Shown: positions 25,791-37,179 of the stretch, piece by piece
How positions within the stretch are numbered: position 1 is the first letter of the stretch
How the letters are laid out: every line of letters begins with the position of its first letter
Assembly (NCBI GenBank): GCA_964401885.1
Contig: CAYOAC010000001.1
Location: forward strand, 1-39,860
From: an uncultured Candidatus Saccharibacteria bacterium
GTDB lineage: Bacteria; Patescibacteriota; Minisyncoccia; Phycocordibacterales; JAACPR01
Length of the DNA stretch: 39,860 bases
Direction: 5' to 3'
Position numbers and translations under genes: made by a program
Notes under the pieces: model-generated
Databases searched by the model: none
The model's input: only the letters and a program-made list of their open reading frames with translations
What the model was told of the DNA's origin: nothing

Positions 25791-26446
25791 AGATAAGTTT
25801 TTCACATGATTTCTGATTTTTGTTAGTAAGGTGGATATGTGAATCTTTTTAAAAGGATTTAGATACCCACCTTACTGCACAAATGCATAGGGAACAGATG
25901 GGATTTGATTAATGGATATGAGTTCGCCGCCTCACACGCTCCGAGCCGGCTGCTTCGCCGCCTCAGACACTCCCGAGCCGGCTGCTTCGCTGCCCCACTT
26001 CAGGGTCGGCCTCTCACAGCAAAACTCCCAAAAATCAAATAATATAATGAACACAAGCGCAGTGGAACCATCGCCGGCTTCACTTCGCGACAACCTGGCC
26101 TCGTAGAAAGGAGGAATTACTTAATACCCGTTAGAGAAGTGCCATAACAGGACTCAACTCTAAAAGGGCTAGTTTGACCAAATACACCCTGCACGTCAGT
26201 CGTTCCAATCGCACCCACCGCCAAATTAAAATTCCCTTCACCTCTATCATTTAGAAAGGTAATAAGCACCTAGAACCCTCTAGAGAAGTGCCATAGCACT
26301 CAAACTCGAAAAGGGCTGGTCGTGGCGTAAAAGTCACAAATACTACACAAAAATCAAAATCAGAACGTACTTTCGGACCTCCGGAGTCTCTCGCAACTAG
26401 CTTACCCAGCTAACTTGCCACGAGATTCCGGGGGTCTTCTTTTTTA
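25791..26446 (+). ncRNA. Candidate large structured non-coding RNA (GC-rich island with internal repeats)
   Basis: About 650 nt with G+C much higher than the flanks and no credible ORF. It contains a tandem ~33-nt duplication (..ccgcctca[c/g]ac[g/a]ctcc(c)gagccggctgcttcg..) and two ~75-nt dispersed copies (tagaaagg...tagagaagtgccata[a/g]c...aaaagggct[a/g]gt). It ends in a T-run after ggacctccggag...ctccgggggtc. Confidence 0.3.
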
Positions 26447-26472
26447 TAAAAATGAAAATCTTTAATAACTTC

Positions 26473-26500
26473 TTGTCTTTTTATTTATTTTTCGTATAAT
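26473..26500 (+). promoter_or_regulatory. Candidate promoter for tRNA-Ala
   Basis: TTGTCT, a 16-nt spacer, then TATAAT, about 40 nt upstream of the tRNA. Confidence 0.4.
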
Positions 26501-26539
26501 GATTTCACTTGATTAAATCAAGACCAATTTAAGAAATTG

Positions 26540-26614
26540 GGCCCGTAGCTCATCTGGTAGAGCACCTCACTTGCACTGAGGGGGTGGCAGGTTCGAGTCC
26601 TGTCGGGTCCACCA
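26540..26614 (+). tRNA. tRNA-Ala (anticodon UGC)
   Basis: Cloverleaf with acceptor GGGCCCG/CGGGTCC carrying G3:U70, anticodon loop CTTGCAC, T-loop GGTTCGAGTCC, and an encoded CCA. Confidence 0.95.
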
Positions 26615-26687
26615 TTGACGAAAACCCATTTTCGTTTTAATATAATCAAGAATCTCAAAGTACCTGACGTTTGTTGGGAATTTCACT

Positions 26688-27581
26688 TTGAATCAAATAG
26701 TACTTAACAAAAAGATTGAAATGAAAAGAACCAAAAAAGTATTTAATTTTTACACTGAATCTATAAATCTTATACCGTTTCATGTTATAATTGCTTTTAT
26801 CTGTGCAGGGATTAGTTTTATAGTCTGTGATCCATGTCATAAACCTATTACATTTAGTGTTTTATTGTATTCTATTCTAACTGGTTTTATCCCTATGTAT
26901 TTGTGGTTGTCACCATTTTTAGTTGCTTTGTTAATAGATGTTTTGGAAATTTTGACAAAGTGGATATCTGGAATTTCCCAGAAAATAGTGAAGCATACAA
27001 AATCAAAAACTACAAAAACAAAATGGTTTTCAGCAAATGGAATGGATCGGAATTTCTCAAACTTACTAGAAGGCACATTCGATCCGAAAGATTACTGTTT
27101 CTTTTTGGATGGTCAAAATCCAGAATTTACTGATTGTCTTATTCGATTAGCAACAGACAGGTTTGTCACACATCTTGTCGGTAGGGAATTGCGTGATTTG
27201 GATAATGATAAAAATGAAGATTTTTATACCGAAAGCTGGAAAACTTTATCCACTAAAACGGTAGGAGATGAGATTTTTATTTTTCTCTCAATAAGGGCAC
27301 GTGAACGAAAGGGTATCAAGGATTCTTTTAATAGCGTATTCTTTTTTGTACAATTGAAGGTGTCAGATGACAAAGAATCAATAGTATTCTCCGGTTTATC
27401 TTTTAGACACAGGAGAGACCTAGAAGAAATGAAAGTTGAGTTTGAAAGATATGTTTCAGCTCAGTGTGGCGATAGTTCTTTTTCTCCATTAAGTTCAGAT
27501 GTTCTTGCAGAATTAAAGGCTTTGTCGAAACCAAGAGTGGATAGTACTCCTGTAAAAAGCGCAATAATTGTTCCTGTCTAG
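26688..27581 (+). CDS. Hypothetical membrane protein (two N-terminal TM helices plus a cytoplasmic domain)
   Basis: 297-aa ORF directly downstream of the tRNA. An alternative start is MKRTKK at 26721. No recognised homolog. Confidence 0.55.
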   Translation: MNQIVLNKKIEMKRTKKVFNFYTESINLIPFHVIIAFICAGISFIVCDPCHKPITFSVLLYSILTGFIPMYLWLSPFLVALLIDVLEILTKWISGISQKIVKHTKSKTTKTKWFSANGMDRNFSNLLEGTFDPKDYCFFLDGQNPEFTDCLIRLATDRFVTHLVGRELRDLDNDKNEDFYTESWKTLSTKTVGDEIFIFLSIRARERKGIKDSFNSVFFFVQLKVSDDKESIVFSGLSFRHRRDLEEMKVEFERYVSAQCGDSSFSPLSSDVLAELKALSKPRVDSTPVKSAIIVPV

Positions 27582-27674
27582 AATATATGAAACAATAGAG
27601 GAACCAAAAGGGCTGAGATACACATTCAATTCGTGGTCTTGGTCCTTTTTTAATTCAAAATATTTTTTAATATC

Positions 27675-27729
27675 TTTAACTCACCAACCACCTGGTTCAA
27701 CAAAATCACATCCAATTCCACTATTGACA
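27675..27729 (+). repeat. Intergenic repeat copy a (ends in TTGACA)
   Basis: ctttaactcaccaaccacctggttcaacaaaatcacatccaattccactattgaca. Confidence 0.8.
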
Positions 27730-27751
27730 AAAACTATTAAATATATATAAT
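27724..27751 (+). promoter_or_regulatory. Sigma-70-like promoter formed by the 3' end of repeat a
   Basis: TTGACA (27724-27729), a 16-nt spacer, then TATAAT (27746-27751). Confidence 0.5.
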
Positions 27752-27758
27752 ATTCTAC

Positions 27759-27896
27759 ATGAAGTCTAACTTCAAAAACGTGAGTTCCAAATAGGATCTG
27801 GCCGTCGGCCACTGCACAGGCTTACGTAGACAGAAATGTCTTTGCGTGCAGTAAACGATTCAAACCTCCGCTGGTTTTTCTGGCGGAGGTTTTTTA
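27759..27896 (+). ncRNA. Candidate small RNA (~135 nt) with its own promoter and intrinsic terminator
   Basis: GC-rich, non-coding, with several local hairpins (gaagtctaacttc; ggccgtcggcc; ctgcac...gtgcag enclosing gacagaaatgtc). It ends in the terminator cctccgctggtttttctggcggaggtttttt. Confidence 0.45.
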
Positions 27897-27905
27897 TAAA
27901 ATATT

Positions 27906-27958
27906 CTTTAACTCACCAACCACCCAGTTCAACAAAACCATATCCAAGTCCACTATTG
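27906..27958 (+). repeat. Intergenic repeat copy b
   Basis: ctttaactcaccaaccacccagttcaacaaaaccatatccaagtccactattg. Shares 27 identical nt with copy c. Confidence 0.8.
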
Positions 27959-28030
27959 TTTTTACCTTTATTTATTAATGTGTATTTTTTATACTTTAGT
28001 ATGAATTTGAATCATTGGTTTTTAAGTGTT
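27951..28030 (+). promoter_or_regulatory. Conserved upstream block 1 with the palindrome ATACTTTAGTAT (27991-28002)
   Basis: About 75 nt, roughly 85% identical to 36256-36335. The palindrome overlaps a -10-like TATACT. Lies upstream of the E1-like operon. Confidence 0.5.
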
Positions 28031-28127
28031 CATAAGCTATTGGGATGTTGCGAAAACATTGACATTATTGATTATGCTTGTATTGTAACAACGAAATGCT
28101 ATTTGAAAATTCAAACCAAAACTACAA

Positions 28128-29213
28128 ATGAAATACCAAATAAATCCTTCTGCCACTCTGTTGGTAAAAGAGAAGGGTAATATGATTGTTGTTAGATTTT
28201 TACTGGACGCCACACGCAATCTCCATGCTTTCGAAATGTCACCGATTGGTGAACAAATATTAACAAGGATGTATGAAGTGGTATCTGAAGAGAATCTACT
28301 TACTGAATTTGATCTTGGAGGTGAAGATTTGGAGCAATTCCTTGCTCCACTAATTACTTCTGGATTGGTTCTTTCTGAAGAAAATTTCACTCATCTTAAT
28401 GCTCTCGGAGAGCGTAATATTAGGACTATGGAATTTTTCCGATCGTTTGCTTCTGTTGAAAGACCAACTATCGAACTGGTTCAGAAGCTTATGAATTCAA
28501 CCATTCTAGTTCTTGGACTTGGAGGTATCGGTACCTGGGTTGTAGAGATGTTTGCTCGGATGGGAATAAAAAAACTAATACTTGTCGATCCTGACAGTGT
28601 AGAAGAATCAAATATTCCTCGCCAAGCGATGTTCACTCGACTTAGTGTTGGCCTTTTAAAAACGGAGGCAGCGAAAGCGTTCTGTGAGGCCATATCTGAA
28701 AATATTGAAGTACAAATATTTGCCGAGCAGATATCAGATTCAGAATCCTTGTTATCAAAACTTCAGGGAGTTGATCTTGTCATAAACTGTGCTGATAAAC
28801 CAGATGTTGATTTCACTAATTCACTCGTAACATATGCTTGTTTCAAAGCAGGTGTGCCTCACATCCTTTGTGGAGGATATGATGGACATCTTAGTTCACT
28901 TGGACAGACTGTGATTCCTGGAGAAACTTCTTGCTGGTTTTGTTTTGCCGATAGCGGTATTTACGAAAATCTTCTTGATGGCTTCAGGATTGTAGACAGG
29001 ACATCGAATCAACAGATCGGTGGAACAATTTGTCCTATTGGTGTTTATGTTGCTAGCTTCCAGGTTCAAGAAGCTGTAAGAATTCTTACAGGTTGTTCTG
29101 AACCAGTCATGATTAACCGCAAGGCAGAGATAGATTTTACAAATCTGTCTCAAAACTTTGTAAACGTACCCAAACTCAAAACATGTAAACTTTGTGGAAA
29201 TGAAAACCATTAA
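28128..29213 (+). CDS. E1-like (ThiF/MoeB/MccB-family) adenylyltransferase with an extra N-terminal ~100-aa domain and a C-terminal Cys4 zinc motif
   Basis: Nucleotide-binding VLGLGGIGTWVVEMFARMGIKKLILVDPDSVEESNIPRQ. Cys pairs CWFC and CKLC. The N-terminal domain resembles the N-terminus of the downstream enzyme. Confidence 0.85.
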   Translation: MKYQINPSATLLVKEKGNMIVVRFLLDATRNLHAFEMSPIGEQILTRMYEVVSEENLLTEFDLGGEDLEQFLAPLITSGLVLSEENFTHLNALGERNIRTMEFFRSFASVERPTIELVQKLMNSTILVLGLGGIGTWVVEMFARMGIKKLILVDPDSVEESNIPRQAMFTRLSVGLLKTEAAKAFCEAISENIEVQIFAEQISDSESLLSKLQGVDLVINCADKPDVDFTNSLVTYACFKAGVPHILCGGYDGHLSSLGQTVIPGETSCWFCFADSGIYENLLDGFRIVDRTSNQQIGGTICPIGVYVASFQVQEAVRILTGCSEPVMINRKAEIDFTNLSQNFVNVPKLKTCKLCGNENH

Positions 29214-30432
29214 AATTAACCCTCATCTGGAACTTATGGATCCAGTTGCAGGACAAGTGAGAAATACTAAATCAGGAGAGGTATTCAGCCTTTCCTTCGA
29301 AGCACTGTCTGTTATTTCATTATTTGATGAACCTAAAAAAGTCGGTGACGACTTTGAGGGTTTGGAAAATATTGTTATGTCAGATGATAATGAAGCGGTG
29401 AAAGCATTCATTGAAAGTCTTTTGGAACAGGAAGTTCTGATTTTCGAGGAAGAATTCGATCAAACTCCCAAAAGCGATTGGGATCATAAAAGATTATTAG
29501 ATTTGGCTCTGGTTGAAAAACCATTCCTGTCTTGTTTGAGTGTTCCTGTCGCAGGTTTGGATTCAGAATATCCGTATGAGTTTGCAATCGTTGGAATGCC
29601 TTTCGATCTTGGTTCTACAGGATTTCCTGGATCAAGATTTGGTCCGACCAGACTGCGGGAACTTTCTGCTTCTGGCACAGATTATCGAGGACGATTCAGT
29701 GATTTGTCATGTGCTGGATGGTTATCAGAACATGGTGTGAAACTGTGTGAAGGGAAAAAGATTGTAGATATTGGAGATGTGATTCATCAAGTAGGGGAGC
29801 CATTCCATGACTTCTTCAAAAGGGTGAAGAATGTTAATAATATTCTGCGAGAAAAAGGTGTCATGCCAATCTTGATTGGAGGAGACCATTCTTGTACATA
29901 TGCATCGGTCTGTTCTGTGATAAAATATTCACAAGGCAAATCTTTGCATCTTGTTGTGTTCGATGCACACACAGACCTTGCGGACTACAATGCTTCTATT
30001 TCGCATAATCATGGCAACTTTGTTACCAGACTACTTTCTGAAGGGGTAGTAAAAAAGGTGACACATGTTGGTCTTCGTGGGATGCTTGGAAAAGCAGAAA
30101 CAAGGGACGGTTACGTCGCTGTTTATGCAGATCAGTGTACTTCTGTGGAAAAAGTAATGGAATACATTCCATTCGACCCTTTGGAGACTGTCTATGTCTC
30201 TTTTGATGTTGACGTGATAGATCCAATCTTTGCACCAGGAACAGGCACGCCTGTTTCTTTGGGACTAACACCTCAAATAGTTTTGTCAGTGATTAGAAAA
30301 ATCTTCGCATCTCAGAATGTAGAAGGTTTCGATATCGTTGAGTATAACCCTATGAGGGATATCAATGATATGACGGGTCATCTACTAATCAGTATGCTTC
30401 CGAAGTTTCTGGACGCTCTGCGTTCAAAGTAA
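29194..30432 (+). CDS. Arginase/agmatinase/formiminoglutamase-fold (ureohydrolase) metalloenzyme with an extra N-terminal ~110-aa domain
   Basis: Binuclear-Mn motifs GGDHS, DAHTD and SFDVDVIDP. Overlaps the E1-like gene by 20 nt (operon). Confidence 0.85.
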   Translation: MEMKTIKINPHLELMDPVAGQVRNTKSGEVFSLSFEALSVISLFDEPKKVGDDFEGLENIVMSDDNEAVKAFIESLLEQEVLIFEEEFDQTPKSDWDHKRLLDLALVEKPFLSCLSVPVAGLDSEYPYEFAIVGMPFDLGSTGFPGSRFGPTRLRELSASGTDYRGRFSDLSCAGWLSEHGVKLCEGKKIVDIGDVIHQVGEPFHDFFKRVKNVNNILREKGVMPILIGGDHSCTYASVCSVIKYSQGKSLHLVVFDAHTDLADYNASISHNHGNFVTRLLSEGVVKKVTHVGLRGMLGKAETRDGYVAVYADQCTSVEKVMEYIPFDPLETVYVSFDVDVIDPIFAPGTGTPVSLGLTPQIVLSVIRKIFASQNVEGFDIVEYNPMRDINDMTGHLLISMLPKFLDALRSK

Positions 30433-30654
30433 GAAGATTGACTGATTTAGAAAGTGGCGTATAGTGTTCACAGGTTCGAATTCTCGGGCCGTTCAAACAT
30501 CCAACTACGGAAAGGAGAATAATAAGCACATGAAACAGATTCAAGCCAGTAAGCTCACAATCGTTCCTCTCGGAGTGGTCGTCGATGCCGTCTGTATGCG
30601 CGGCCTTCGTCGCCGTCGTGCATGACATTCCATCATCTTTACTGATGGTTCCCA

Positions 30655-30694
30655 CACCCTGCCAAGTCCTCGACTCGGCAGGGTGTTTCTTTTA
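30655..30694 (+). terminator. Rho-independent terminator after the arginase-fold gene
   Basis: caccctgcc...ggcagggtg stem followed by tttcttttat. Confidence 0.7.
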
Positions 30695-30704
30695 TAATAC
30701 AAGC

Positions 30705-31241
30705 ATGACTTCACCAACAATCAAAACTCAAAATTATATAATACGACCTTTCAAAAAGGAGGATGCTTTATTATGGCAAAGTTGGGACATAGATCCTGAA
30801 ATCCAATCTCATATGCCAGAACCTGAGAATGAGTCTCAAGATATCTCACAACAATATGAATATATTGAAGAATGCGAAAAAGACGAAGAAGGATATTATT
30901 GGTCTGTTGAAACAAATGACGGAGTAACTATTGGTACAGTATCTTTATTTGAAATAAATTCTCACCATAAAAATGCCAATGTTGGGATTGTAATTGGTGA
31001 TAAAAATTATTGGGGTAAAGGTGTTGCAACAGAAGTACTTCAAACTTTGAGCTCTTATGCTTTTGAATATTTAGATGTTGTTCGAATTAGCGCAGAAGTT
31101 GAAGCTAATAATATTTCAATGCAAAAAGTATTTGAAAAGGTTGGATTCGTACAAGATGGAGTATTTAAAAAAGCACGAGTAAAAGAAGGAAAAAGAATAG
31201 ACGTGCTACATTTTGGGATAGTGAAAAATATTTTGAATTAA
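30705..31241 (+). CDS. GNAT-family N-acetyltransferase (RimJ/RimL-like)
   Basis: IIRPFKKEDA...VGIVIGDKNYWGKGVATE...ISAEVEANNISMQKVFEKVGF. Start placed at the Met after the terminator; the ORF finder gave 30585. Confidence 0.85.
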   Translation: MTSPTIKTQNYIIRPFKKEDALLWQSWDIDPEIQSHMPEPENESQDISQQYEYIEECEKDEEGYYWSVETNDGVTIGTVSLFEINSHHKNANVGIVIGDKNYWGKGVATEVLQTLSSYAFEYLDVVRISAEVEANNISMQKVFEKVGFVQDGVFKKARVKEGKRIDVLHFGIVKNILN

Positions 31242-31555
31242 AGAACGTCCTGTAAAAAAGTTTATATTTATTCTTCAAAAAATAATATTTCTCATGAACT
31301 TAAAACCGGAGGTGATGGCTATTGTGATGTTTTAAGTATAGAAGAAGATATTTGGCTTAGAGACTTAAGGCACAGAGAATCAGATAATTAAAACAGCCCT
31401 CCTTTCGGAGGACTGCTCTTGGATGTGGTACCCTTAAAGTTTATGGAAACCCTAAGATATCTTTATTATATGAAGAACCTTGTTTTTGTCAATATTTTCA
31501 GTAAGTTGACATTTTAAATCAATATAATCTTTAAAACCTTCAATTCCTGCACTAC

Positions 31556-31587
31556 TCGGTTCAACAAAACCATATCCAAGTCCACAA
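31556..31587 (+). repeat. Intergenic repeat copy c
   Basis: ctcggttcaacaaaaccatatccaagtccac. Confidence 0.75.
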
Positions 31588-31599
31588 AAATAAAATCTG

Positions 31600-31748
31600 G
31601 AAGCGTGAGCTTTCAGATTTTTAATTTTTGTAGGGCCCGACAGGACGAGAAAGACGGAGGCCTAGGGTCCCTGCGTCCGAGTGACAACGAGGACCTGGGA
31701 TGGCCGAGTCGGGGTCGCGGAAATTTTCTCTAGAAAATTATCTGTGAC
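31600..31748 (+). ncRNA. GC-rich non-coding island, a candidate structured RNA
   Basis: Starts near GGGCCCG (31633-31639), which is identical to the tRNA-Ala 5' acceptor strand, and runs into the duplicated tRNA 3' end. Contains the hairpin aattttctctagaaaatt. No ORF. Confidence 0.3.
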
Positions 31749-31767
31749 CGAGTCCTGTCGGGTCCAC
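31749..31767 (+). repeat. Direct repeat of the tRNA-Ala 3' end (attR-like): CGAGTCCTGTCGGGTCCAC
   Basis: 19 of 19 nt identical to 26594-26612 inside the tRNA-Ala T-arm and acceptor. Followed by ctactgTTTGACA, as in the repeat family. Confidence 0.8.
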
Positions 31768-31786
31768 TACTGTTTGACAAAACACA

Positions 31787-32023
31787 ATGGTTATTATTGA
31801 GGTTCATTTATCCAAAGAACCCAGAGAAATAGATCCAGTTTATCTCAAAAAGATCAAGGATTTTAAGTCAAAAAATCCAGATTATTCATCAGGATATGGA
31901 TATCATTTCAAGAAAGATGTTATTACTGTCCGAAAATTTCCAAATAACGGCCAACCAGGTGAATATGGAACACTAGTGCCTGAATATCACGGTAATGGTT
32001 ACGCATACGATTTTATGAAGTAG
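31787..32023 (+). CDS. Hypothetical small protein (78 aa) with a Gly/Tyr-rich C-terminus
   Basis: MVIIEVHLSKEPREIDPVYLKK...SSGYGYHFKK...GEYGTLVPEYHGNGYAYDFMK. Followed by a good terminator. Coding status unproven. Confidence 0.35.
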   Translation: MVIIEVHLSKEPREIDPVYLKKIKDFKSKNPDYSSGYGYHFKKDVITVRKFPNNGQPGEYGTLVPEYHGNGYAYDFMK

Positions 32024-32053
32024 CGAATAGAGAAGGTTTTCTATCTACAAAAC

Positions 32054-32088
32054 CCCGAAGGCATTAATTTGTCTTCGGGTTTTTATTT
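32054..32088 (+). terminator. Rho-independent terminator
   Basis: ccccgaaggcattaatttgtcttcgggtttttatttt. Confidence 0.8.
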
Positions 32089-32120
32089 TGTCTGAATTTG
32101 TTTTTATACTTTTAATATCT

Positions 32121-32187
32121 CATTCAACTCCACCAACTCTTTCACAACCAGGTTCAACAAAACCACCCCCCCAAGTCCACCATTGAT
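32121..32187 (+). repeat. Intergenic repeat copy d
   Basis: ...caccaactctttcacaaccaggttcaacaaaaccacccccccaagtccaccattgatt. Confidence 0.7.
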
Positions 32188-32189
32188 TA

Positions 32190-32712
32190 GAAAACGAATG
32201 GGTGAGGTTATACGGGTGCTTGACTTTCAAAACAATTTCATTAGAATACCTCATTGGACTCTGTTGATCAATATCCCACCGAGGAAGGAGTGGTGACGAT
32301 CGTTGAATGATAAATGAATATATATGCAAGAAAATGTCTTCGTTCCCTTCCAAGGGGATGCCTCAAGACGCTCTGCTATGTCCAAATATTACGGATTAAC
32401 CCCACTAACGTGGGCAAGCGTCCGTTGCCGGATAAGTACTCGCCGATGTATCTGATATTGGATTGCATAAAAGTTTAGAAGTTCAAGGCTTATCAATGAA
32501 CACAACGATGGTAAAGTGTGTTTCAGAGGATGGGTTGGTCTATCCCAGTTTGAGAACACTGGTGCGCCAAATGACAGTGAAAATGAATCTCAAAGGAGAG
32601 GAATCTCTAGAGAGATAACAAAAATCTTGTCCCTACAGATGACTGTAAATACACACTTTTGCTCGGCCGAGCAAGACATGTGGACTGGTCATCTTAGGGA
32701 TTTTTTTTATTA
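32190..32712 (+). ncRNA. Candidate structured non-coding region (moderately GC-rich, ~520 nt)
   Basis: Only short, compositionally odd ORFs on either strand. Local hairpins: ccccactaacgtgggg-like, ggcaagcgtccgttgcc, and the palindrome gctcggccgagc. Ends with T8. Boundaries are uncertain. Confidence 0.25.
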
Positions 32713-32812
32713 AAGAACACTTTATTCATTGACGAAACTAATATTAAGTGTTATTTTTATTTTTGAATCGGCGAACAACAAGTAGCCGAAAAACAACAGA
32801 AAATATTTGAAA

Positions 32813-33064
32813 ATGAGAGAAATCAAATTCGATGTATCTGACAATCTTCTAGGTTTTGTCTGTCGTGAACTTTTGGAAATTGGTACCAACCCATGTATTT
32901 CAATTGTTCGCACAGAGGACAGGATCGGTAAAGGAAAAATGATGCGTCTTGGATTCGAGGTGCCTTCTAGAGAAACATTTGTATCAGTTACAAGATGGCT
33001 TAGGACCCTTGGGGATGCAGAACTCGTATTCGATGTCGAAACGAAGGAAATACCTGTCACATAA
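32813..33064 (+). CDS. Hypothetical small protein (~84 aa)
   Basis: MREIKFDVSDNLLGFVCRELLEIGTNPCISIVRTEDRIGKGKMMRLGFEVPSRETFVSVTRWLRTLGDAELVFDVETKEIPVT. Protein-like composition with its own downstream hairpin. The overlapping minus-strand ORF is Ser-rich low-complexity and was not called. Confidence 0.4.
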   Translation: MREIKFDVSDNLLGFVCRELLEIGTNPCISIVRTEDRIGKGKMMRLGFEVPSRETFVSVTRWLRTLGDAELVFDVETKEIPVT

Positions 33065-33103
33065 AAGCAACCGTGCTATATTTGGCTTGGAAAATTAGTT
33101 TAA

Positions 33104-33140
33104 CAACCGCTTGACCCTTTAGGGAGGCGGTTTTCTATTT
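33104..33140 (+). terminator. Hairpin terminator
   Basis: aaccgcttgaccctttagggaggcggttttctatttt. Confidence 0.6.
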
Positions 33141-33177
33141 TCAAAATCTCTTTCAAAACTTTTAATTCAGAGACTAT

Positions 33178-33210
33178 CTGATTCAACAAAATAATATCCA
33201 ATTCCACTTC
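33178..33210 (+). repeat. Intergenic repeat copy e (degenerate)
   Basis: ctgattcaacaaaataatatccaattccacttc. Confidence 0.6.
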
Positions 33211-33466
33211 TTTAGAAAAGTGTTTTAATTTTAATCACTCTTGGTTTATTCTGAGCCTGTAGAAGGGCAAGTCATCTAGGATTTATGTGGGAAAATTGGG
33301 TCAGTCATGATTTTTTCAACCAGTATAACTGCAGGTGTGCGTTTTTTAGTTTAGATTCAGATTAGAATTGAAGGAAACATTGACTTTTTTAAATAAAATG
33401 ATATTGTCCGTGAAGGCTTGTTATGTTTGACTCAGATAAGTCAAAATAGCGAGGAAAACAAGAACA

Positions 33467-36142
33467 TTGAAACAACTAGTTAGCAATACTATGCCACAAG
33501 ATGAATTCCCACCAAGAGGTGGAAGACCACAGGATCGAGATTTAACCCTCGCTCCAAATGAATATGCATTTGTAATGGACACTACCAAAGGTGTTGTCCA
33601 AACATGTGTTGGCCCGCTCGTACATACCATTTCCGGTAATGACCAACCTGTGCGTTGGAACCCGGGAACTAGTAAGTTCGATCGTTGCGCTCAAGACGCC
33701 GCAATTTGTCTTTTTGTCTACGTACAAGAAGGTGATTACGTTCGTCTTACTAATCCTGCCAAGAGTGACACCCAGTTTCATCCTCCGGTCGGTGGTAAGC
33801 AAAATGCGGTAGACCTAAAACATGGTCGTACTGTTAATCTGCGTGGTCCACTTTCTTTTGCCCTTTGGCCCGGCCAATCGGCACAAGTTATCGAGGGTCA
33901 CCGTTTGAGGTCCAACGAATTCTTGCTTCTTACCGTTACAAACGAAAATGAGGCGAGGAACAATTGGACTAGTGCGGTAATGGAACCGCAACAATCAGTC
34001 GGTTCAGTCGGTTCGAGAGCCGAAGGTGATGAAGGTGAAACAGCCGCTACAATCGAAAAGGCCAATATTGTTACTCCCAAGAGTACCAACATTGATCCTT
34101 CTAAGCTGACTGTTGGTCAGCGTCTTATTATTTGCGGTACGGAATGCAGTTTCTATATGCCGCCAACGGGTATTGAAGTTATTCCGGTTGAAAACGGACG
34201 ATATGTCCGTGAAGCAGTGACCCTCGAACGTTTGGACTATTGCATTCTTCTTGATGAAAACGGTATTCGCCGTCTTGTCACTGGACCGAATGTTGTGTTT
34301 CCTGAGCCGACCGAGACGTTTATCACTGATGCTCAAGGATCGAATATTTTCACAGCTCTTGAGCTCAATGAGCTTCAGGGTGTGTATGTGAAGGTTACCG
34401 CCAATTATACGGATGAAAAAGGTGTTAAGCATAGAGCTGGTGATGAGTTATTTATCACTGGTGCCCAATGTCCAGTTTATGTTCCTCGTGAGGAACATCG
34501 TATTATCCTGTATGGTGACTCCAGTAAGGTGAAGCACAATTCTGTCGCAATTACTGCTGGTGAAGCTCGCTATGTGATGGATCGTATGACTGGTGATGTG
34601 GAAACTGTTAAGGGACCAAAAATGTTCCTTGCAGATCCGCGCAAACAATTGCATATCCGTCGGCCGTTGCCAGAAAGATTGGTTAAGTTGCTTTATCCTA
34701 GAAATAGTGAAGCAATTGAAATCAATGAATGGCTTCGCAAAGAAGCTGCTAAATCTGGATCTGGCGATATAGTCCTTGATGAAAGTGCGCAATTGTATCG
34801 CGCTTCAACTACAGGTGATCGCAGTTTGTCCCGTCGTCGTGCACCTGGAGCAGGTCAAATTATTGCTGAATCGTTTGATCGTGGTGGCCAATATACACCA
34901 CCACGCACTATTACCCTCGAAACGAAATACGAAGGTGCAGTGCAATTTAGCGTGTGGCCTGGTTATGCGGTGCTTATCGTCGACAAGACTGGTAAGAGCC
35001 GTGTTGTTCAGGGTCCAAGTCCAGTGATTTTGGATTACGGCGAAGTCCCACAAGTCTTCTCATTGTCTACCGGTACTCCGAAGACGGATGAAAAGATTGT
35101 CGAGGATGTCTTCCTCAAGACGCATGGAAATTGCGTTTCGGATGAAGTTATCGTCGAGACTGAAGATTTGGTCAATATCCGTATTCGTTTGTCCTATCGC
35201 GTTAACTTCGAAGGTGATGATCCCAAGAAGTGGTTCGAACTCGACAACTACGTTCAATTTATGTGTAAGCACCTGCGCTCAATACTCAGGAATGCTGCAC
35301 ATGGATACGGTGTTGAGGCGTTCTATAGCGATGCGGCTAACATCGTTCGCGATACAGTTCTTGGAGGCACAACTCCCAAGAAGAGCGAAGGTGAAGGTCT
35401 CAAAGCCGAACGTACTGGTCGCGCATTTGCCGAAAATGGAATGCGTGTCTACGACGTTGAAGTCCTTGAGGTTGATATTGATGATAATGAAATCGCGAAC
35501 CAAATGCTCGCATTTCGGCATTCGACTGTTCAAGGTGCGCTCCGGATTCGCGCTGCAAGGCAAAAACTGGAAGAAACCAGAGCTATTGAGGATACCAAGC
35601 GCGAAAGTTTGGCTGAAACGATGAAGACTGAAGCTGCTCAAGCTGAAGCAGAAATGCAAAAGCTGGAAGCTCAAGTCCAGATTGCAAATGCCAGGCAAGT
35701 TTCTGAATTTGGTCTTCAAAGAGAAAGGCAGGAACAAGAACTGTCGATGTCAGGACGCAAGTTGCAGGCTGATAAGGCTAATCAGGCTGAGTTGGACGTT
35801 ATTGAAGCGGCTAAGCGTGATCGTGAGCGGGCATCTGGTGAACTCAAGCATGAAATGGCTAAAAAGGCGGAAGAACTTCGTCTTACTGGTCTTAATGCTG
35901 AAGCTGATGCCTTGGTCAAGAAGACTCAGGCGGTCTCGCCGGACTTGATTGCAGCACTTCAGGGTGTTGCTGCGAGTGGTCTTGCTGATAGTATGGCGAA
36001 GAACTTCAGTGTTCTTGCTATCCTTCAAGACAAGGGTGTTGCTGATGTAGCCAAGAGTGTGTTTGCAAACACGCCTCTTGCTGATTCTATCAATCAAGTG
36101 CTTCGACATCTCTCTACCCCTAAAGGTGGTGATGTAAGCTGA
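33467..36142 (+). CDS. Major vault protein (MVP) homolog: N-terminal tandem vault repeats, shoulder domain, C-terminal coiled-coil cap-helix
   Basis: Recurring ~55-aa units with the GxE(L/W)(F/L)(I/V).G....Y(V/M)P pattern: GQRLIICGTECSFYMPPTGIEV and GDELFITGAQCPVYVPREEHRI. The shoulder-like block GAVQFSVWPGYAVLIVDKTGKSRVVQGPSPVILDYGEVPQVFSLSTGTPK...VIVETEDLVNIRIRLSYRVNFE aligns with eukaryotic MVP ...[39 protein letters not shown]...[22 protein letters not shown]. The last ~200 aa are strongly heptad/coiled-coil. 891 aa, which is MVP-sized. Markedly higher G+C than the surrounding genome. Confidence 0.85.
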   Translation: MKQLVSNTMPQDEFPPRGGRPQDRDLTLAPNEYAFVMDTTKGVVQTCVGPLVHTISGNDQPVRWNPGTSKFDRCAQDAAICLFVYVQEGDYVRLTNPAKSDTQFHPPVGGKQNAVDLKHGRTVNLRGPLSFALWPGQSAQVIEGHRLRSNEFLLLTVTNENEARNNWTSAVMEPQQSVGSVGSRAEGDEGETAATIEKANIVTPKSTNIDPSKLTVGQRLIICGTECSFYMPPTGIEVIPVENGRYVREAVTLERLDYCILLDENGIRRLVTGPNVVFPEPTETFITDAQGSNIFTALELNELQGVYVKVTANYTDEKGVKHRAGDELFITGAQCPVYVPREEHRIILYGDSSKVKHNSVAITAGEARYVMDRMTGDVETVKGPKMFLADPRKQLHIRRPLPERLVKLLYPRNSEAIEINEWLRKEAAKSGSGDIVLDESAQLYRASTTGDRSLSRRRAPGAGQIIAESFDRGGQYTPPRTITLETKYEGAVQFSVWPGYAVLIVDKTGKSRVVQGPSPVILDYGEVPQVFSLSTGTPKTDEKIVEDVFLKTHGNCVSDEVIVETEDLVNIRIRLSYRVNFEGDDPKKWFELDNYVQFMCKHLRSILRNAAHGYGVEAFYSDAANIVRDTVLGGTTPKKSEGEGLKAERTGRAFAENGMRVYDVEVLEVDIDDNEIANQMLAFRHSTVQGALRIRAARQKLEETRAIEDTKRESLAETMKTEAAQAEAEMQKLEAQVQIANARQVSEFGLQRERQEQELSMSGRKLQADKANQAELDVIEAAKRDRERASGELKHEMAKKAEELRLTGLNAEADALVKKTQAVSPDLIAALQGVAASGLADSMAKNFSVLAILQDKGVADVAKSVFANTPLADSINQVLRHLSTPKGGDVS

Positions 36143-36157
36143 TATTGATTGTTACTA

Positions 36158-36188
36158 GTCGTGGTGCGCAAGCGCACCACGGCTTTTT
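36158..36188 (+). terminator. Strong hairpin terminator after the MVP gene
   Basis: gtcgtggtgcgcaagcgcaccacggcttttt. Confidence 0.9.
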
Positions 36189-36250
36189 AATTTAATATTA
36201 TAAACCCCCAGAAGATCAAGTAGAATAATTCTAAACCCCACACAAGAAGT

Positions 36251-36262
36251 CAGTCCACTACT
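36251..36262 (+). repeat. Intergenic repeat copy g (3' part only: cagtccactactg)
   Basis: Matches the ...agtccactattg end of the repeat family. Leads into conserved block 2. Confidence 0.5.
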
Positions 36263-36335
36263 GTTTTTATCTTTATTTTTTAATGTTTAATTTTCATACT
36301 TTAGTATAGGTTTGAACCATTATGAATATATGAAC
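36256..36335 (+). promoter_or_regulatory. Conserved upstream block 2 with the palindrome ATACTTTAGTAT (36296-36307)
   Basis: About 85% identical to 27951-28030. Upstream of the 245-aa membrane protein gene. Confidence 0.5.
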
Positions 36336-36370
36336 GTTGCGAACGTGTTGCAAAGTGATATTATTTTTGT

Positions 36371-37108
36371 ATGAATAAAAAAATAAATATTACTTTCGCA
36401 ATTTTCGGATTGTTATTTGGGGTAATTGCATTTTTTCTGTGGAGTGGACAAATAGAACTTGTAAAAACTGGGGTACACTCTTCTGGAGCGATTGTTGGTA
36501 TATCAAATCATAAATCCGATAAAGGGACTATGATGTATGCACCTATTGTTGAATATGAATTTAATAATACAAAAAATACATTTGTTTCTAAATTATCGAC
36601 TAGTAATCCAGGATATAAAATTGGAGAAAGTGTAAAAATATTGATTCCAAAAAATGGAAATCAACCACAAATAAATTCTTTTATAAGTTTATGGTTTGCT
36701 GCTATCGTAACATCTTTTCTAAGTTTAACTTTTTTGATTGCGGGTATTTTATTTTTTATTAGAGATATAAAAGTAAATAAAAACAATGAAATATTAAAAA
36801 GTAGAGGAGTATTAATAAAGGCAACCAACCCTATTGTTATAAATGGTTTTGAAGATAAAATTCAATTTCAGACAACTGGTTTATTATCCTTAGTGTCTAA
36901 TTTCAGAAAAAGAACAAATTTACTAAATAAAATTAAAACTCAGTGGTTAAATCCTGAAGATGGTAAAGTTTATATATTTTATAGTGAATATTTAAATTAT
37001 GATCCAACTCCATATTTAGGTGAAACTGTGGACATTAAAATATTGCCCGAAAACCCCAGTGTGTACAAGTTTGAAAATATTCCACAATCAGCAAAAATTA
37101 CTAATTAA
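36371..37108 (+). CDS. Hypothetical membrane protein (two TM helices separated by a beta-rich domain)
   Basis: 245 aa. An N-terminal TM helix, a ~90-aa soluble segment, a second TM helix, and a C-terminal domain. No recognised homolog. Confidence 0.55.
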   Translation: MNKKINITFAIFGLLFGVIAFFLWSGQIELVKTGVHSSGAIVGISNHKSDKGTMMYAPIVEYEFNNTKNTFVSKLSTSNPGYKIGESVKILIPKNGNQPQINSFISLWFAAIVTSFLSLTFLIAGILFFIRDIKVNKNNEILKSRGVLIKATNPIVINGFEDKIQFQTTGLLSLVSNFRKRTNLLNKIKTQWLNPEDGKVYIFYSEYLNYDPTPYLGETVDIKILPENPSVYKFENIPQSAKITN

Positions 37109-37132: not shown

Positions 37133-37179
37133 TTCACAACCCATTTCAACAAAACCACATTCAAGTCCTACTATTGACA
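37133..37179 (+). repeat. Intergenic repeat copy f (ends in TTGACA)
   Basis: cacaacccatttcaacaaaaccacattcaagtcctactattgaca. Followed 18 nt later by TAATAT. Confidence 0.7.

Follow-up and report, generated by a model that had tools for sequence, protein, structure and literature searches.

What would bring an E1-like adenylating enzyme and an arginase-fold hydrolase together in one gene pair, each with an extra N-terminal domain that resembles the other's? The question is raised by a 39,860-nt stretch of DNA from an uncultured Candidatus Saccharibacteria bacterium (contig CAYOAC010000001.1 of assembly GCA_964401885.1, forward strand; hereafter the window), in which a sequence-only reading had picked out such a pair and proposed that two different catalytic folds share a substrate-docking domain and act on a common peptide. 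Our analysis supports this proposal, in that both N-terminal domains appear to be recognition elements of the kind used by the enzymes of peptides that are ribosomally synthesized and then modified post-translationally (RiPPs), and an Arg-rich precursor gene lies next to the pair. On balance, we consider it probable that the cluster is a RiPP-type biosynthetic pathway acting on a 31-aa peptide via two enzymes with a RiPP recognition element (RRE). Behind this reading stand the gene content, the homology and folds of the domains, catalytic residues that are all intact, a strict co-occurrence of the genes and a peptide under purifying selection. The two enzymes and their domains are laid out as follows.

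28128..29213, + strand: MccB-like E1/ThiF-family adenylating enzyme with an N-terminal recognition element (open reading frame, ORF, of 361 aa)
28128..28397, + strand: predicted RRE (peptide-clamp) domain of the MccB-like enzyme, approximately residues 1-90 (AlphaFold2 model, Foldseek)
28476..29183, + strand: adenylation (ThiF) domain with Gly-rich ATP loop, catalytic Asp and Cys4 zinc site (Pfam span)
29200..30432, + strand: RRE-fused agmatinase-type ureohydrolase (410 aa from the ATG at 29200; alternative GTG at 29194, 412 aa)
29200..29460, + strand: predicted RRE domain of the ureohydrolase, approximately residues 1-87 (AlphaFold2 model, fold matches)
29578..30399, + strand: arginase-fold catalytic domain with the complete binuclear-Mn ligand set (Pfam span)

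Both plus-strand ORFs were confirmed as first described (28128..29213, 361 aa, and 29194..30432, 412 aa from the GTG), as were the motifs quoted for the two enzymes, all of which are invariant across homologues. The hydrolase start is probably the ATG at 29200, because an identical protein of 410 aa exists in the database and every relative begins MK(T)I. With this start, the overlap with the MccB-like gene comes to 14 nt, not the 20 nt originally given.

Are the two N-terminal domains truly related? Pairwise BLASTP between them was not significant (E 0.47), so that a comparison of profiles was needed; these were built from 31 hydrolase homologues that keep the extension and 47 homologues of the ThiF protein. 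In hhalign, the two N-domain profiles matched with a probability of 95.3% (E 2.1e-8) over 83 collinear columns, corresponding to the whole domain, and the match was retained on thinned alignments (95.9%, E 5.2e-9), whereas three control pairings (N-domain versus catalytic domain, and catalytic versus catalytic) returned E values of 0.045-0.28. The likeness noticed by eye in the sequence-only reading is thus upheld. The AlphaFold2 models of the MccB-like and hydrolase N-domains (predicted local distance difference test scores of 86 and 81, respectively) share a beta-beta-beta-beta-alpha-alpha-alpha topology. For the MccB-like N-domain, the top Foldseek matches were TbiB1 with its leader, TigE, MibB, LynD and many MccB chains (probability 0.96-1.0); fold matches of the N-domains further include leader-bound lasso B1 proteins, PbtF, BmdC (an oxidase associated with nonribosomal peptide synthetases), TglI, ThcOx and LynD, and MccB is found among those of both. 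Foldseek therefore supports an RRE fold for both N-domains, which is the outcome anticipated when a check against RRE-like or MccB-clamp folds was suggested. Together, the homology of the domains and their RRE-like modelled folds argue that both enzymes carry homologous PqqD-like RREs.

The catalytic half of the first enzyme matches Pfam ThiF on residues 117-352 (E 2e-42), leaving about 115 N-terminal residues outside any Pfam assignment. It contains the motifs GLGGIG, DPD...SNIPRQ, CWFC at 269 and CKLC at 353, and G130/G132/G135, D154, N162, K178, D223, C269, C272, C353 and C356 are invariant in the 47 ThiF homologues. Among solved structures in the PDB, the top match of the family profile is MccB (E 3e-48, 168 bits), with an alignment that spans positions 53-358, to the end of the protein, and takes in part of the peptide clamp; E. 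coli ThiF (E 2e-34) and PaaA (2e-33) follow. The two-domain architecture of MccB, a peptide clamp and an adenylation domain with a zinc site, is present in full. At the same time, the protein falls under every NCBIfam ThiF/MoeB cut-off by wide margins (TIGR02356, 105.6 versus 275; NF004281, 82.8 versus 266), and no ThiS/MoaD-like carrier is listed in the gene tables of the related loci examined, where no dedicated search for one was made. On its sequence, we take this E1-like enzyme to be MccB-like rather than a housekeeping ThiF or MoeB.

The hydrolase matches a single Pfam family at E <= 0.1, Arginase (PF00491), on residues 129-402 (E 3e-55). This match runs without a break (274 residues for 273 positions of the model), and approximately 125 N-terminal residues lie outside any Pfam assignment. 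The motifs GGDHS, DAHTD and DVDVID are present, and H230, D255, H257, D259, D336, D338 and E381, that is, all the Mn ligands plus the guanidinium-binding Glu381, are invariant in the 31 homologues. The top solved matches of the hydrolase profile are agmatinases and guanidine/guanidino-acid hydrolases (E 1e-48 to 1e-51), and the catalytic domain shares 30-35% identity with its agmatinase and guanidino-acid ureohydrolase relatives. Nevertheless, the protein stays below the curated agmatinase cut-offs (TIGR01230, 135.4 versus 174.3; NF002564, 148.5 versus 302), and the curated models of agmatinase, formimidoylglutamase, ThiF and MoeB all score below their thresholds with it and with the MccB-like protein. 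The peptide arginase OspR (8BRP) is absent among the 60 best PDB sequence matches listed for the hydrolase, the weakest of which has an E value of 1e-20. Judged by these features, the enzyme is a ureohydrolase of the canonical agmatinase type whose Mn site is intact. It does not resemble the known RiPP peptide arginases and, with its N-terminal RRE, looks like an independent recruitment of the arginase fold to peptide substrates.

If both enzymes bind a peptide, where is it encoded? The sequence-only reading had seen no obvious precursor gene. By reading the intergenic DNA of three related loci, we found a small plus-strand ORF with a conserved end, and its counterpart in the window is a conserved 31-aa gene between the hydrolase and a GNAT gene.

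30530..30625, + strand: precursor peptide gene, 31 aa (MKQIQASKLTIVPLGVVVDAVCMRGLRRRRA), ending in RRRRA
30511..30517, + strand: Shine-Dalgarno sequence AAAGGAG, 12 nt upstream of the precursor ATG (read from the sequence)
30438..30465, + strand: promoter-like site TTGACT-16-TATAGT upstream of the precursor (consensus scan, 10/12; pattern match only)
30654..30695, + strand: strong hairpin with U-run after the precursor, terminator- or attenuator-like (RNA fold)

Because this gene adjoins the pair, what had been described as a two-gene operon is a unit of at least three or four genes. In the precursor frame, four orthologues differ by 82 synonymous and 31 non-synonymous codons, while the remaining two frames show synonymous/non-synonymous counts of 7/104 and 2/108; this in-frame excess of synonymous changes argues that the ORF is a translated gene under clear purifying selection. 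Equivalent GGAG/GGGGG motifs precede the precursor ORFs of two related loci, L001 and L006, and the same loci show a comparable hairpin and T-run after the precursor; in the window, the hairpin has a folding energy of -30.2 kcal/mol (z -6.2), which none of 200 shuffled sequences equalled. The family consensus reads ...K(L/V)xI(x)PL....D..(Y/C/G)(M/L)RG(L/V)R(R/H)(R/P)R(A/S)-stop. In an alignment of 19 locus-derived peptides, Arg(-8) and Arg(-2), counted from the C-terminus, are invariant and Ala(-1) is nearly so, and across these 19 and 22 retrieved database peptides the C-terminal residue is Ala throughout, with Ser once. A profile search run with a 54-aa lead sequence retrieved 50 small predicted database proteins, all unnamed or called 'hypothetical protein' and without a Pfam domain, and NCBIfam holds no model for the peptide. 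Public gene calls place a 74-aa ORF on the opposite strand over the precursor at L001 (9191-9415) and call nothing at the precursor at L004 (6597-6842).

Several other candidates for a precursor or cluster member were considered and set aside. The 78-aa Gly/Tyr-rich ORF at 31787..32023, which the sequence-only reading had put forward, has a counterpart in no related locus and was rejected, as was, for the same reason, a 297-aa ORF at 26688..27581. Mini-ORFs (ELDxxLLNxVVxELKxLK) encoded by a repeat of about 70 nt with six copies lie on the opposite strand and lack the conserved Arg; moreover, two of the copies are broken and the repeat is absent from related loci.

The arrangement is strictly conserved. 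In all 22 fetched loci (a count that, like the other counts of fetched loci, includes duplicate assemblies), the hydrolase gene lies directly downstream of a ThiF gene of the family, so that the co-occurrence of the pair in other genomes, proposed earlier as a check, is well established; every public contig looked up from the hydrolase has the ThiF gene followed by the hydrolase gene with a 4-nt overlap. Wherever the flank was long enough, local searches with hidden Markov models found a precursor-like ORF next to the two enzyme genes; it lies upstream of ThiF in most loci and between the hydrolase and GNAT genes in the clade of the window. When one genome per species was scanned with the ThiF profile, approximately 15 family loci came up, nearly all from Patescibacteria (Saccharibacteria, Paceibacterota, Peribacteria and 'Patescibacteria group'). 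The locus closest to the window, at 59% identity, belongs to a Saccharibacteria metagenome-assembled genome. Among the relatives, the cluster sits in unrelated gene neighbourhoods; no transporter is conserved, and polyamine genes are not conserved neighbours in the gene tables of the related loci examined. An exact-motif scan of metagenomic DNA for MRG[LF]RRRRA-stop gave 62 matches. Nine of these are family peptides, and their contigs also encode the enzymes if they extend far enough; the remaining 53, which seem to be Arg-rich frames arising by chance where the DNA is rich in GC, were discarded.

One or both of two further genes often accompany the core. A stand-alone C39-like peptidase gene abuts the hydrolase gene in 12 genome or assembly loci and in six metagenome loci. 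In the window, the pair is followed by a GNAT gene, as the sequence-only reading had stated.

30705..31241, + strand: accessory GNAT acetyltransferase (Acetyltransf_3; Pfam E 3e-28), likely 178 aa from the ATG at 30705

This start was chosen because the precursor ORF and the hairpin lie upstream, and it is in line with the length of the orthologues (176-183 aa). The closest solved relatives of the GNAT are polyamine (spermidine/diamine) N-acetyltransferases of the SpeG type (E 6e-10). An orthologue is clustered with the core genes in the window and in 11 fetched loci, several of them duplicate assemblies (L001/L002, L006-L009, L012, L016, L017, L023 and L112), whereas most related loci lack it; in three loci the GNAT and the C39 peptidase occur together. 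As a separate observation, the U-run of the hairpin runs into a conserved TATAAT located 6-7 nt before the GNAT start (30687-30704 in the window, approximately 9440-9462 in L006), which may point to a GNAT transcript with a very short leader or none. Two additional promoter-like sites lie upstream of the MccB-like gene.

28059..28086, + strand: promoter-like site, 42 nt upstream of the MccB-like gene (consensus scan, pattern match only)
27724..27751, + strand: perfect-consensus promoter-like site (consensus scan, pattern match only)

What could these proteins make? Arginase-fold enzymes hydrolyse guanidino groups to an amine and urea, and C39 peptidases are leader peptidases. In the pathway that we propose, the conserved leader segment K-L-x-I-x-P-L is predicted to be bound, probably as a strand, by the RREs of both enzymes. 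The ureohydrolase would then hydrolyse arginine guanidino groups in the C-terminal core M-R-G-L-R-R-R-R-A, yielding ornithine and urea, and the MccB-like enzyme, using ATP, would adenylate the carboxylate of the C-terminal Ala. We infer these two steps because an Arg-rich core that ends in a small residue suits both enzymes, and the RRRRA terminus of the precursor makes this chemistry much more plausible. The activated carboxylate would be captured by an amine, most likely the delta-amine of the ornithine derived from the invariant Arg(-8), and the product would then be a side-chain-to-tail lactam of eight residues, polycationic and loosely polymyxin-like; both this ornithine-to-C-terminus lactam and its position are speculative. 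Where present, the GNAT may acetylate or acylate ornithine or the N-terminal amine, and cleavage of the leader would fall to the C39 peptidase, which most of the longer-leader relatives have.

The literature offers precedents for the chemistry of both enzyme families. The RRE-ThiF enzymes MccB, GrcB, EnfB and IndF activate the C-terminal carboxylates of their precursors for intramolecular capture, and the nucleophiles that attack the adenylate are an Asn amide for MccB, a Cys thiol for GrcB and a Trp indole for EnfB and IndF (PMC12596934, PMC11256085, PMC12150305). RiPP peptide arginases make ornithine, which GNATs then acylate in selidamides (PMC13647313, PMC10028609). Given this precedent, together with the fact that its nearest solved relatives acetylate aminopropyl and aminobutyl amines, ornithine acetylation would be a reasonable role for the GNAT. 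The proposal in its most complete form, namely an undescribed RiPP class mainly of Patescibacteria (the Candidate Phyla Radiation) in which an RRE-recruited agmatinase-type ureohydrolase makes ornithine, an MccB-type enzyme closes an ornithine-to-C-terminus lactam, and the product is polymyxin-like and possibly N-acetylated, is one that we advance tentatively, as possible rather than probable.

Comparison with known systems shows where the cluster resembles them and where it departs. Like MccB, PaaA, GrcB and EnfB/IndF, the adenylating enzyme combines an N-terminal RRE, or 'peptide clamp', with an E1-like adenylation domain and a Cys4 zinc site, and the chemistry to be expected from this likeness is ATP-dependent activation of a precursor carboxylate. 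However, the precursor ends in R-A here, compared with Asn in MccA, a Cys-containing core in GrcA and Trp-containing motifs of the NWYFI or WI(V)V(I)I(V) type at the end of IndA and EnfA. Unlike in MccB-type systems, the precursor gene of the window clade is not immediately upstream of the MccB-like gene, and the partner enzyme is a ureohydrolase, of which the ThiF-RiPP reviews make no mention. With the peptide arginases OspR, KspR, FlmR and BipC, the cluster shares the arginase fold, binuclear-Mn guanidino hydrolysis and an adjacently encoded Arg-containing precursor. The best structural neighbour of OspR is also E. coli agmatinase, and an extra dimerization domain is inserted in its fold, the precursor being thought to bind in the dimer cleft (PMC10028609). 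This inserted domain is absent from our hydrolase, whose Pfam match is contiguous and which has an N-terminal RRE instead. BipC is assigned to the UPF0489 superfamily, with the motifs EEHxE/DxHxD/DIDLD (PMC12707348), and, compared by this description, neither its family nor its motifs are matched by the hydrolase (PF00491; GGDHS/DAHTD/DVDVID). A keyword search of the peptide-arginase papers found no mention of a recognition element.

The pairing of a ureohydrolase with a GNAT in the window recalls the selidamides kamptornamide and phaeornamide, whose ornithine is made by a peptide arginase and then acylated on its side-chain amine by an enzyme of the GNAT superfamily (PMC13647313). Unlike the selidamide clusters, the one described here has an MccB-like enzyme and no lanthionine synthetase, and its GNAT, in contrast to the selidamide acyltransferases, is small, Acetyltransf_3/SpeG-like and missing from most related loci. 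The closest relatives of the catalytic domain, agmatinase SpeB and the guanidino-acid ureohydrolases, differ from the hydrolase as a whole, which scores below the curated cut-offs, has the additional RRE and is encoded in a peptide cluster rather than among polyamine genes. In published ThiF-RiPP reviews, RRE surveys and peptide-arginase papers, of which our coverage is incomplete, we found neither an arginase or agmatinase partner for ThiF-like enzymes nor an RRE-arginase fusion. The gene combination is thus apparently undescribed in its precursor family, its RRE-enzyme fusion and its enzyme pairing.

Three other explanations have to be weighed against this RiPP-type pathway. With MccB as the closest solved relative (E 3e-48) and the same two-domain architecture, the cluster might encode a microcin C-like 'Trojan horse', in which the C-terminus of the peptide receives a nucleotide from the MccB-like enzyme, possibly via an amine or guanidine nitrogen that the ureohydrolase has exposed or remodelled, and the GNAT provides MccE-like immunity. 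An Acetyltransf_3-type GNAT does follow the cluster, and the GNAT domain of MccE confers immunity in microcin C clusters (PMC12250964). However, no precursor ends in Asn, and the small ORFs ending in Asn that occur upstream of the ThiF gene are chance ones, none of them conserved or identifiable as MccA-like. The GNAT is absent from most loci, and its solved relatives at E <= 0.001 do not include MccE, the closest being polyamine acetyltransferases. Furthermore, with Ala in place of Asn, the N-P chemistry would be lacking and the acyl-adenylate would be labile. Because a terminal Asn is missing from every precursor and the GNAT does not look like MccE, we regard such a conjugate as unlikely. 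A slightly smaller chance still is given to a route of the pyrroloquinoline quinone or pearlin type, where a small molecule is built on a peptide that serves as a disposable scaffold: a free guanidino amine such as agmatine or arginine would be joined to the adenylated C-terminus and trimmed there by the agmatinase-like domain, and the product would be cleaved off. Such a route would fit a catalytic domain that most resembles agmatinases and guanidino-acid hydrolases, a small, conserved C-terminal residue and a peptidase that is often present. It would leave the strongly conserved poly-Arg core unexplained, though, and neither an amino-acid ligase, a tRNA-dependent enzyme nor a C-terminal-cleaving protease is conserved in the cluster, the C39 peptidases being leader peptidases.

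The third explanation, that a housekeeping ThiF/MoeB activator happens to lie beside a polyamine agmatinase and that the N-terminal likeness and the small ORF are incidental, agrees with the names that public pipelines automatically give to the homologues ('agmatinase' and 'molybdopterin-synthase adenylyltransferase'). We consider it effectively refuted. All curated equivalog cut-offs are missed widely (agmatinase, 135 versus 174 bits; ThiF, 106 versus 275), both proteins carry the additional RRE domain, and the pair always lies beside an Arg-rich peptide gene that is itself under purifying selection; in addition, neither a ThiS/MoaD-like carrier nor polyamine genes are conserved neighbours in the gene tables examined. 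On the points that the sequence-only reading had named as decisive, the N-domain likeness is significant, the housekeeping cut-offs are missed and the conserved context is a peptide cluster, not one of polyamine or cofactor genes.

Some observations weigh against the RiPP-type pathway or parts of it. The hydrolase belongs to canonical PF00491 and is nearest to agmatinases that act on free substrates, and not to the UPF0489 family of BipC; because of this, the case for peptide-arginine specificity is made solely by the RRE fusion and the Arg-rich core. The C-terminal residue of the precursor is Ala or Ser, not the Asn required by MccB chemistry, and Arg(-2) is replaced by Thr in one database homologue, P0268. 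The window cluster has neither a C39 peptidase nor an exporter, and since neither the GNAT nor the C39 peptidase is universal, both may fall outside the core pathway.

Some more distant RRE-ThiF genes are not counted as members of the family. In Olsenella and related gut contigs (L152/L153, 3889-6092), two tandem RRE-ThiF-like genes lie between genes for a RadC-like protein and a UvrA-like ATPase, with no hydrolase; they represent a system of their own, as yet uncharacterised, that draws on this family of enzymes. An RRE-ThiF gene of Siminovitchia, with ABC transporters alongside and likewise no hydrolase, was also assigned to another system.

What of the surroundings of the cluster? The sequence-only reading had placed the pair on a tRNA-bracketed islet. 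One bracket is a genuine tRNA-Ala gene, the single tRNA present, and the other a copy of about 20 nt of its 3' end, at 31749..31770.

26539..26614, + strand: tRNA-Ala(TGC), left edge of the GC-enriched island (ARAGORN, Rfam)
31749..31772, + strand: copy (about 20 nt) of the tRNA-Ala 3' end, an att-like direct repeat (22/24 nt identical)

The similarity of the copy is confined to the T-arm and acceptor end, and together with the tRNA gene it bounds a 5.1-kb segment with the peptide cluster inside, so that the description as an islet is reasonable, although an integrase is absent. GC content is 36-47% across 26-36.4 kb (about 10 kb, from the tRNA-Ala) and 28-34% elsewhere, and this raised-GC stretch, which holds the peptide cluster and a vault-protein-like gene, looks like a genomic island (26000-36400) without a recognisable integrase. 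The flanking genes are bacterial housekeeping genes of 28-34% GC: an rpoC fragment, dnaG, rpoD, tgt, uvrABC and ddl. Apart from the tRNA, Rfam had no match in the window or when 31.25-33.47 kb was searched separately.

Other features of this stretch are recorded here as side observations. A GC-rich, structured-looking segment at 31600-31775, which ends in the tRNA-Ala 3'-end copy and has no Rfam match and no tRNA or transfer-messenger RNA call, may be an integration-site remnant or a decayed tRNA-like gene. Just upstream of the tRNA-Ala, at 25905-26000, a short GC-rich segment contains a tandem direct repeat of approximately 31 nt (CCGAGCCGGCTGCTTCGCCGCCTCA...). An 891-aa ORF at 33467-36142 (+) has domains of the eukaryote-type major vault protein (MVP_shoulder, E 3e-24; Vault_3, 1e-9; Vault repeat) and looks horizontally acquired, because its GC content is 46-48% in a genome of about 30% GC. 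The repeat of approximately 70 nt mentioned above occurs in six intergenic copies round the cluster, all on the minus strand (27648-27721, 27880-27953, 31512-31585, ~32104-32177, 33134-33207 and 37145-37170). Its mini-ORFs, also on the minus strand, follow the pattern (V/M)(E/D)LDxxLLNxVVxELKxLKxIL, and codon differences in their frame number 36 synonymous and 80 non-synonymous, whereas each of the five alternative frames has 1-29 synonymous ones. Of the six copies, two are broken, a clear ribosome-binding site is absent and the repeat does not recur in related loci; it could represent small hydrophobic peptide genes or a miniature inverted-repeat transposable element-like element.

If our proposal is correct, the cluster would define a new RiPP class with a precursor family ending in MRGLRRRRA. 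The fusion of a recognition element with a canonical ureohydrolase would be a new enzyme architecture and thereby a second, independent evolutionary route to peptide deguanidination, and the ThiF-like RiPP enzymes, whose reaction scope is currently being mapped (PMC12596934), would gain new partner chemistry. The system is invisible in current annotation, because gene callers usually miss the peptide and the enzymes are labelled 'agmatinase' and 'MoeB'; with three core genes and a peptide of 30-55 aa, it would be small enough to be amenable to heterologous co-expression and mass spectrometry. That the minimal genomes of Patescibacteria keep the cluster suggests an important ecological role, and a polycationic cyclic peptide, if this is indeed the product, could serve these ultra-small episymbionts against their hosts or competitors.

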